64,000 bases of DNA from Sphyrna mokarran (lineage: Eukaryota): NCBI GenBank assembly GCA_024679065.1, contig JAGIQG010000004.1:73656001-73720000 (forward strand), in the 5' to 3' direction. Position 1 is the first letter of the stretch; each line of letters starts with the position of its first letter. Made by a program: the position numbers and the translations under genes. Positions 47,429-62,919 of the stretch are shown here, piece after piece. A model generated the notes under the pieces. It did not search any database and was not told where the DNA came from. It was given only the letters and a program-made list of their open reading frames with translations.

Positions 47429-47554
47429 GGTGCCATGGCTGCTACATATTCTGCCCTCAACCACAAGACCCTTCGTCCAGTGTTGGAGCCAGTTGCAGCT
47501 TCAAGTTTAGCCCAACGCAGAGTCATGAAAAAACTTACCTCAACAGACTTATGA
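47429..47554 (+). CDS. RPS6KA6: RSK4 last coding exon ([41 protein letters not shown]) with ERK-docking LAQRR and class I PDZ-binding tail
   Basis: tttttag|ggt acceptor, TGA at 47552-47554. Confidence 0.96.
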
Positions 47555-59984: not shown

Positions 59985-60095
59985 GAATCAAAAGATTAGT
60001 AAACCTGACATGGTACTGATTAAAGAAATACATTTCACACATGCTGAAATTAAGCCAAACTCTGTAAAAACAAAAAAATCTTAAGCACAGTTTAT

Positions 60096-60269
60096 TTATT
60101 TTTTTTCAGGCCAGAACATTGGCCCAGCAACAGGCACAGGCAGAACTCTCATCCCACCAATCTTCAAATATCGATATCCAGATTCATCTGGTTTGAATTC
60201 TTCTACTTTGCTACTTCCGGGCTTGAAGTTTTCTGTCTTCTCGTGTGCAAATTCTTCTGTTAAAATCTT
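60096..60269 (-). CDS. Putative unknown gene, terminal exon (KILTEEFAHEKTENFKPGSSKVEEFKPDESGYRYLKIGGMRVLPVPVAGPMFWPEKK*)
   Basis: Acceptor ttccattttgcttacccttgaag|aag (phase 0); stop TAA overlaps tandem AATAAA (60091-60100), followed by a T-rich tract. Confidence 0.55.
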   Translation of the reverse strand, partial: KILTEEFAHEKTENFKPGSSKVEEFKPDESGYRYLKIGGMRVLPVPVAGPMFWPEKK

Positions 60270-60810
60270 CTTCAAGGGTAAGCAAAATGGAAATTTATTA
60301 ATAGAAAATAGCTTTTCACCATTCACATTCTGTTGATATTACAGTTCTGACTGGCATGAATTCAGTTTTTTGTAATCTTATCAAGTTGAGTGATTTGATT
60401 AGTTTATAACAGTTCTGTAACCAAAAGTAGAGCCTGATCAGTGTGGAGGTTAATGTCTCCACCAATGCTAAGGTCAAGGGCTATAACCGTATTAAGATTG
60501 TCAGCTCTGCTGACGTTGAGGTACAGGGTTAGACTGGCACAAAGACCAGAGCTTTACCCTTACACACGTCAGCGCTATGTTGGATTATGTTTTAATGACT
60601 CCTTTGACTCAAGATTTATGTACATCTGTGAAAAGGTTAATTTGACTCTTAGACCAGTGCTCACATAAAACCAATGGGTGTGTTATGGGTTTATACAACT
60701 TCACTCCATTAAATATCATCCACCAAAACAAGCAACAATAATCTTGTCCTGATGCCTTCTGATTTAAAATAAGTATTGATATGTTTACATTCGGTGAATG
60801 TGAAACCTAC

Positions 60811-60932
60811 TTCCATTTTGTGTAGATGTATTGGGTGTTTTGATGGCATCCTTTTATTTGGACATCTGGGCTTTTCAAAGCTATGGTTTTTGTGAAGCTT
60901 TGATTGTTCCAAGTTGAAAATAGCATCCAGAT
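60811..60932 (-). CDS. Putative unknown gene, internal exon (DLDAIFNLEQSKLHKNHSFEKPRCPNKRMPSKHPIHLHKME)
   Basis: Acceptor tcatttcccattgcag|at (phase 1), donor gaa|gtaggt (phase 0), 122 bp open. Confidence 0.55.
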
Positions 60933-61805
60933 CTGCAATGGGAAATGACAATATTGGTTTTCCATTTAGAAAAAATGTAATTCAGGCTTTATAGCACTTC
61001 TGTAGTCTATTAACAAATCAATCTAAGTAAAGAGAAGTAGAGGTTACAATGCCCATAATATTACAGTTTTAAGTATGTTTAAACTGAGCAACTTTCCCTA
61101 TAACAATGATGGCAACCAGCATTACTACTTTAGTCAATTGTTCACTTGCTTCTCTTCCCGTTAAGCTTGCTATTTAAATACAAATTATTGATGAGATAAT
61201 GGCAAGATGGAGGGTCAACCCCTTTTCTTTCATTTATTGTTAAAGTATTAGTGATAAACACAATATGGATATGGGATTTATCAATAGCTCACTGATCCTG
61301 TGATTTTCTTTTCATGGTAATTTATGGAGTTCTGGGATGGGTCTGTGGGAGGCAATATGAAACATTCATTTGTCATTCATCAGTGGTAATCATGTGGCCA
61401 TAAAAAGCAATAACATCCCAAGCATAATGCAACTTCAAAAAAGAGTTTAACTGAATCTTTCCCAGTGAAGTGTTTCCATAAATCAAAATTAGGGGTGGAT
61501 TCAACCTCTTCTCCCTATACAAAGAATTATAAATGTGAAATAGAAAAAAACACAATGGACCAGTAAGGTCATGTAAATATTAAAAGACACTGACTTAAAT
61601 ATATAACAATTTTTGTACCTGAGCAATGTCATACTAGAACTATTATATTTGTAAGGATTCAATGTGAGATAGCTATCTCATCAGACACGACTGATTTGAT
61701 GCACAGGACAGGTCACCTGAATGGGAAAATGAACTCGGGGGCAAATAGGGAGGGAATAATTAATAAGTTTATCTTGGATAAAGAGTTACTGCCTGCTGTA
61801 CAAAC

Positions 61806-61905
61806 CTAATATGGTTTTCTGACTAGAAGAGATCTCCAAATACTTGTCTTCATCGAGGTTTGGTGATAGAGCTGGAGGAGCGCAGTCAGCATAGTCTTCG
61901 TCCAT
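61806..61905 (-). CDS. Putative unknown gene, first coding exon (MDEDYADCAPPALSPNLDEDKYLEISSSQKTIL)
   Basis: acaATGG Kozak context; upstream acceptor cttgtgtctctctcag| (exon starts 61976); donor g|gtttgt, phase 1. Confidence 0.45.
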
Positions 61906-62919
61906 TGTGATTGGTGTGAGTTGATTAAATAGGTTTGGTCTTAGTCACAGTGATTGCTAGAATTTGCCACCTTCTGCTGAGAGAGACACAAGTATTTTTC
62001 AGAAATCAATATGACTCAAATGAAAACCTACAAAGGGCTGTTGGAGAGATTAGTAGGCATGTTCTTCACTCCATAACATCCTCAACAGTCATTCCTCAGC
62101 TTTAAATCTTGAGTTACTTTTAGAAATGGCTCCACCTGGAGCCTACATTATACTACTTAAAGTATTTTACAATATCACTTTCTGGCAACTTATTGATAAT
62201 ATACAAATAACTGTATTTTGTAACTATTACACCTTCCTTGTTTTAAACAAAGCAAAAATAGAATTAAATATATGATAAACATCAAATAGGTGCCTGTAAT
62301 GTTCTTGTGAAAACCCACTTTTCAGAATATAAGTGTCCCAAATAACTTGTTCGCTCACACACTGATCACAGCCTTATTTAAAAAGTGTATTTCTTTCATA
62401 TACCGAAGAGTATCCAATCCCTGTTCAAGGCTGATGTTGGACGATGATTACAGAGTTCATTGTTTAAAAGATAATTTTCTTGTATGGGAGATGGATTGTG
62501 ATCTCACAATGAATTCAATGGTGAGTTCATAATAGCTCAGAAGTGCCTACCTTACGAGGCTCCATTGTGCTTAACAGAGTTTATTGAAAAATAATGTGCT
62601 TGTATTTTTGGAATCCTCAAAAGTTTAAAAAATATTTTTAACACTAGTTTAATATATGCTGCAGGTTACATTAAAAGAAAATTCTTGGTCATATTTGACG
62701 TGCCCATTTTTGGAGCAATTTCAATGTAGTAAGGACATGGTAGAAAGATACGAATAGATGAAATGTAGTTATTACTATTGTTATTTACTCTCAGGAAATG
62801 TAGTCCTCAGATTTCCCCCCTCAGAATAAACTCATTGTAATGGAGTTGGGGCAAGAAACAGTTGTATCAGTTTCCCCCCTCTTTTCCTCCATTTTTAGAT
62901 AATGATGTTCTGTGTTGTG

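Follow-up and report, generated by a model that had tools for sequence, protein, structure and literature searches.

In mammals, CYLC1 lies between POU3F4 and RPS6KA6; excerpts of two papers give the order POU3F4, CYLC1, RPS6KA6 in human (PMC11202778) and describe a mouse interval of these three genes alone (Pou3f4, Cylc1 and Rps6ka6), with testis-only expression of Cylc1 (PMC11075558). The defining features of cylicins, as set out in the available parts of PMC10684152 and its supplement, are Cylicin_N, KKD/KKE repeats and a pI above 10, and the Cylc2 sites under purifying selection include 37F, 39K, 40P, 42R and 43P. CYLC1 co-precipitates CAPZA3 and moves with CAPZA3 in spermatids (PMC10994659, in part), and cylicins are cited among mammal-specific families in the accessible text of PMC5554394.

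The other closely related system is twinfilin's motif for capping-protein interaction (CPI). According to excerpts of the two studies concerned, the twinfilin tail wraps around the β-subunit stalk of capping protein and has no uncapping activity alone (PMC7840138), and the loss of Twf1 K325, which is followed downstream by the K332/R333 pair, cuts binding about 30-fold (PMC6249002). The ELM resource lists only four instances of the twinfilin-type CPI motif and describes it as employed by twinfilins. Here we describe a candidate small shark gene that occupies the CYLC1 slot and may encode such a motif.

A three-exon model between RPS6KA6 and POU3F4

The window, meaning the whole 64,000-nucleotide stretch of DNA analysed, contains on its plus strand the last coding exon (47429–47554) of an RSK kinase gene, whose name, RPS6KA6, comes from the first-pass annotation and from its position beside POU3F4. 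Convergent with this gene, on the minus strand, the annotation had proposed a small three-exon gene. We reproduced its three segments (61905–61806, 60932–60811 and 60269–60096; 100 + 122 + 174 nt) with their AG and GT ends and matching phases (1 to 1 and 0 to 0), as well as the 131-aa translation of the joined segments. The start context acaATGG and the two overlapping AATAAA signals at the stop (60100–60091), followed by a T-rich tract, were likewise present as claimed. The protein would be 15 kDa, with a pI of 6.3, and is predicted to be mostly unstructured; its GRAVY value of −0.86 agrees with the earlier description of it as hydrophilic.

The predicted first coding exon (61905–61806; 33 codons + 1 nt) encodes an acidic segment and is the least secure part of the model. 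It is preceded by a predicted 71-nt 5′ UTR part (61976–61906) that has stops in all three frames and begins at an acceptor at 61976 (6.6 bits). Exon 2 (60932–60811; 122 nt, phase 1 to 0) is basic and carries the motif described below, while the coding part of exon 3 (60269–60096) comprises 57 codons and the stop, with four prolines among its final 14 residues. A β-hairpin was predicted with low confidence at residues 32–46 of exon 3 (mean pLDDT of 59), and a Foldseek search with this predicted fold gave no match with an E-value below 0.001. Splice sites were scored using a matrix derived from the RPS6KA6 gene of this genome (20 acceptors and 17 GT donors, with two GC donors excluded). The four splice sites of the candidate gene scored 4.0, 6.6, 8.9 and 5.1 bits, all within the leave-one-out range of real sites (1.8–10.9 bits for acceptors and 3.8–12.0 bits for donors). 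The exon-1 donor is weak (4.0 bits), and stronger acceptors occur inside intron 1 at 61514, 61022 and 61716. Upstream, a strong donor (9.2 bits) follows a Kozak ATG at 62565–62551 and could mark the end of a further exon; speculatively, its joining to the acceptor at 61976 would yield a 16-codon uORF. The sequences at 62701 and 62864, just upstream of this site, are what we take to be a CRE half-site and a MYB-like site, respectively.

A synteny check 3′ of rps6ka6 identified a class III POU gene (single exon, 408 aa) that lies on the strand of the candidate, 131 kb past its exon 1, and has 97% identity to a Mustelus POU3F4-like protein over residues 1–105. The candidate is thus flanked by RPS6KA6 and POU3F4 and occupies the slot of mammalian CYLC1; human CYLC1 presumably has the same orientation. 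The first-pass annotation had named CYLC1 as the convergent neighbor of mammalian RPS6KA6, and this remark held up better than its author thought, both in the position of POU3F4 and in a short motif apparently common to the candidate and conserved Cylc2 sites. No other lysine-rich or lysine-repeat exon was found in the 145-kb RPS6KA6–POU3F4 interval. Between the candidate and POU3F4, there is a degenerate CA-rich simple repeat of approximately 11 kb (about 73.817–73.828 Mb of the same contig, C993) with long His/Thr frames. Just upstream of the window (piece L026, about 5480 and 7670), two RSK introns have apparent GC donors (G|GCAAGT).

We then asked how often such a chain arises by chance, requiring chance chains to meet all criteria of the observed one. 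Markov sequence gave four qualifying chains per 4.0 Mb, or 0.13 per 64-kb window on both strands; the real intergenic stretch (145 kb × 2 strands) contained one besides the candidate, and other DNA (233 kb strand-bases) contained two, counted without inspection. The overall chance expectation is 0.1–0.7 such chains per 64-kb window, rising to 0.8–2.5 when the Kozak or AATAAA filter is dropped. The pattern is therefore only moderately beyond chance and does not by itself establish a gene. On the other hand, the base periodicity in the predicted frame was coding-like (P = 0.011 against stop-free intergenic stretches), with negative scores in the shifted frames. The earlier statement that the region resembles no repeat familiar to its author was borne out, as positions 60010–62400 are single-copy and matched only themselves in a search of the genome that skipped very common words; the own-genome search also found no retrocopy that would prove splicing.

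Homologues of exons 2 and 3 were not found. A phmmer search with exon 3 against 1.84 billion representatives gave six matches, none of them vertebrate and none a true homologue: five were tandem-repeat proteins and the sixth was named as a VCBS-domain protein. Word searches with exons 2 and 3 also found no homologue in a collection that includes proteins of Mustelus, Heptranchias, rays and skates, which leaves the gene either without annotation in those proteomes or much diverged. Exon-by-exon Pfam scans, whose sensitivity is limited as the joined protein lies outside them, gave no match, and the ESM Atlas and metagenome loci gave nothing usable.

Constraint on exons 2 and 3 in a related species

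For comparison, we used the only public sequencing run listed, which behaves not as RNA but as genomic DNA from a related species, sequenced at low depth: repeats reach a depth in the thousands, contigs run through introns and no RSK splice joints are present. Since the run behaves as genomic DNA, it was used for comparison only and not for expression. Exon 1 lies outside the contigs of the relative, and the following figures concern exons 2 and 3. Only 4 of their 296 bases differ, as against 78 of 1223 (6.4%, a low estimate owing to the 90% likeness filter on contigs) in six non-exon contigs (Fisher P = 1.6 × 10⁻⁴), so that total divergence is about one-fifth of the background. In exon 3, 2 of 174 bases differ, as against 31 of 427 in the rest of its own contig (P = 0.0014), whereas exon 2 (2 of 122) does not differ significantly from its own flanks (P = 0.34). 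The table of changes left out six lower-supported rows and changes near contig ends; in the worst case, with all four unlisted changes of the exon-2 contig placed in the exon, the count would become 8 of 296. The three splice sites covered, including both of exon 2, are identical in the relative, and the 284 intron bases adjoining exon 3 contain 23 listed changes. A 2-nt deletion (60970) lies just outside exon 2. Within the coding part, a single base is missing from the A run at the stop, which lengthens the frame by one codon, and there is no other indel. Approximately 110 nt past the stop, a minus-strand LINE fragment (59983–59410), which we take to be CR1-type, is absent from the relative (contig joint 59410–59983), marking a dated, lineage-specific insertion.

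The frame of exons 2 and 3 is open in both species. Stops or frameshifts in related sharks, together with a dN/dS near 1, had been named beforehand as evidence against a gene; in this one relative, exons 2 and 3 have no stop or frameshift, but all of their changes are nonsynonymous (E to G, A to P, H to Q and K to E), with both exon-2 changes outside the motif core. No silent change was observed among the four where 3.6–5.2 were expected (P = 0.005–0.03), and the missing silent changes fit nucleotide-level constraint better than protein-level constraint. This raises the possibility that there is no protein gene here and that the chain is a chance arrangement within DNA constrained for some non-coding role, such as that of distant POU3F4 enhancers, or within a non-coding transcript. 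The number of chains expected by chance, the weak exon-1 donor with its stronger decoy acceptors, and the lack of a homologue among annotated shark proteins agree with such an explanation. It would require, however, two separate constrained patches whose edges fall at predicted splice sites, against the many changes in the intron bases beside exon 3, and it leaves unexplained both the frame periodicity and a second copy of exon 2 that is conserved at the protein level (see below). Rfam gave no match in the exons and one match with an E-value of 0.34 in intron 2. We regard a non-coding origin as unlikely. The constraint on exons 2 and 3 in the relative, together with the coding periodicity, supports a real gene, and we consider the locus probably protein-coding. 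The earlier proposal of a lineage-restricted or fast-evolving small gene remains the best reading, while the precise exon structure, exon 1 in particular, and any link of the gene to testis are inferred.

A CPI-like motif in exon 2 and its second genomic copy

The first-pass annotation had pointed to a repeated FKP in the protein. This is present in exon 3, but the informative motif is the F-x-K-P of exon 2, which encodes S-F-x-K-P-R-x-P-x-K-R within a CPI-like region at model residues 47–65 (60894–60838, minus strand; core S51–R61 at 60882–60850). Among 177,635 PDB sequences, the sole match to exon 2 was 7ds6_C, a twinfilin-1/CD2AP peptide, with an E-value of 0.46; the value became 0.12 with a trimmed 23-residue core and 0.011 with a two-copy profile, again as the sole match. 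These E-values are weak, and 7ds6_C is an engineered twinfilin/CD2AP chimera. In the alignment, F52-E-K54-P55 falls on the twinfilin half, with the lysine at Twf1 K325, and the basic pair K60-R61 corresponds to Twf1 K332/R333 with a spacing one residue shorter. The canonical CPI motif has an N-terminal half with the consensus L-x-H-x-T, and this start is absent from the exon 2 sequence. The shark motif thus looks like a natural version of the engineered twinfilin/CD2AP hybrid.

An own-genome search revealed a second copy of the exon-2 motif on another contig (C1437:40839684–40839826, minus strand; 63% over residues 10–37, E = 0.0077). Ten of its 11 core residues are kept; six of them are encoded by synonymous codons, and there is one R/K exchange. 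The K60-R61 pair is among the features retained. A tight back-translated pattern matched these two sites only, and a control pattern matched none. Silent differences are to be expected in a chance protein match too, and the weight of this copy therefore lies in its E-value. The copy sits behind an acceptor of the same phase as that of exon 2, with an in-frame stop three codons after this acceptor and a weak donor (2.8). No matching exon 1 or exon 3 was found in the surrounding 120 kb, and an 81-aa frame behind the copy proved to be a dispersed repeat with 74 matches. The best readings of this copy are a relative that has decayed or an error of assembly; coincidence has a chance of one or two in a hundred.

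The second copy lies about 200 kb from exons that are presumably PPARA-like, as judged from the translations of two of them, and 1.1 Mb from SMC1. We rejected its assignment as a CYLC2 orthologue, as the nearby SMC gene is SMC1 and SMC2 is on C1215, and as an RSK-paralogon copy, as the RSK genes are on C993, C224, C335 and C816. On C1215 (122.47–124.06 Mb), SMC2 and a large-exon glutamate-receptor gene, which we take to be GRIN3-like, are 1.6 Mb apart in what is probably the CYLC2 slot.

The broken state of the sister copy bears on whether the candidate itself has recently decayed, or is spliced differently from the model, with exons 2 and 3 real but the start elsewhere, for example at the 62565 ATG. 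The strong upstream donor with its Kozak ATG, the position of exon 1 outside the contigs of the relative and the wholly nonsynonymous changes would all suit such a history. Against this, exons 2 and 3 are open in both species and differ at about one-fifth of the background rate, and we regard a pseudogene or a different start as improbable.

A more serious alternative is that this is a real, small, fast-evolving shark gene of another function, in which the likeness of the motif is incidental and the gene is a mere occupant of the CYLC1 slot. This reading accounts equally for the exon constraint and the periodicity; short-motif matches come easily after the fact, the single-sequence PDB match is weak and the locus has no Cylicin_N match. 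Conversely, the motif is the very stretch that the two distant copies in the genome have retained, with silent changes, and a twinfilin-type pattern is rare, occurring in only 3 of 7,936 stop-free 40-residue windows of the DNA analysed, which includes both copies. We judge an incidental likeness to be possible but not probable. Our own tentative interpretation, which we hold to be somewhat more plausible, is that of a likely real, single-copy small gene in the CYLC1 slot whose middle exon encodes a predicted capping-protein-binding motif; to judge from the motif, binding of the protein to capping protein is similarly tentative.

If so, the 15-kDa protein would dock on capping protein via F52/K54/P55 and K60/R61, with the F-x-K-P and the basic stretch wrapping around the β-subunit stalk as the twinfilin tail does. 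It would tether or recruit capping protein on actin structures, shield it there, or act as a competitor of uncappers, with no direct action on actin, while the acidic N-terminus, the low-confidence C-terminal hairpin and the proline tail could serve other contacts. The site of action would likely be spermatids, by analogy with the co-precipitation of CAPZA3 by cylicin-1. A stand-alone small protein of this sort, whose motif is a hybrid of twinfilin and CD2AP, would add a new type to the regulators of capping protein. The genome has three intron-containing capping-protein α loci (C1437:25.75 Mb, C882:89.82 Mb and C805:3.88 Mb) and one β locus (C860:21.96 Mb); no intronless CAPZA3-like α copy was among the matches listed.

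Comparison with cylicins and capping-protein regulators

The first-pass annotation had seen no cylicin similarity. This stands as far as Cylicin_N and the lysine repeats are concerned, but a short motif is apparently common to exon 2 and the conserved Cylc2 sites. Cylicin_N (PF15241) had no match in scans of the single exons; genome-wide it gave three matches, the best at 20.2 bits (below the cut-off of 27) and none on C993. The model contains no KKD/KKE triplet, and one intergenic stretch has two, on the opposite strand. With Cylicin_N and these repeats lacking and a pI of 6.3 instead of one above 10, we did not file the candidate as a cylicin. In a comparison made by eye, exon 2 agrees with four of the five listed Cylc2 sites in 37–43 but with only 4 of 19 over positions 19–57; by hand estimate, this agreement falls short of significance if the register is free and comes to about 0.05 for the block once the choice of that block is taken into account. 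We take the cylicin exon carrying the F-x-K-P block to be similar in length to exon 2 and to have the same phases.

It is possible, though in our view unlikely, that the candidate is orthologous to cylicin-1 and represents an ancestral cylicin devoid of repeats. If true, cylicins would date back to the first jawed vertebrates (the shark–mammal split) instead of being mammal-specific, their lysine repeats would have been added later, and the one element kept since then would be a twinfilin-type CPI motif that has gone unrecognised and that explains the hold of cylicin-1 on CAPZA3/CAPZB in the sperm head. The link also offers a testable spin-off for the mammalian proteins, namely the role of the conserved F-x-K-P of CYLC1/CYLC2 in CAPZA3/CAPZB binding and acrosome anchoring. 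Literature searches returned nothing joining cylicin, capping protein and CPI, no cylicin in a shark context and, for sperm and CAPZA3, no "CPI motif" among the matches listed; the available portions of PMC2765723, PMC10881157, PMC10651396 and PMC13752377 contain no statement about where cylicins came from or about a CPI motif in them.

Compared with the cylicins CYLC1 and CYLC2 as described in parts of PMC10684152 and PMC10994659, the candidate shares the POU3F4–RPS6KA6 slot of CYLC1, an F-x-K-P-x-x-P block found at conserved N-terminal Cylc2 sites, a proline-rich end and fast evolution. Cylicins are several hundred residues long, whereas the candidate has 131, an acidic N-terminus and a lower pI, with neither KKD/KKE repeats nor a PF15241 score. 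Compared with the twinfilin tail (ELM LIG_ActinCP_TwfCPI_2; PMC6249002, PMC7840138 and PMC8728146, from excerpts), it shares H-K-x(1-2)-S-F-x-K-P with a basic pair behind it. Unlike in twinfilin, the motif is internal and its K-R is one residue nearer the Phe; whole twinfilin's pair of ADF-H domains is absent from the 131-aa model, which has no Pfam match in the exon-by-exon scans. Finally, the resemblance to the canonical CPI proteins (CD2AP, CIN85, CapZIP, CKIP-1, FAM21 and CARMIL; ELM LIG_ActinCP_CPI_1) lies in the second half of the motif, for which the CD2AP portion of 7ds6_C is the aligned partner, whereas its first half is twinfilin-like.
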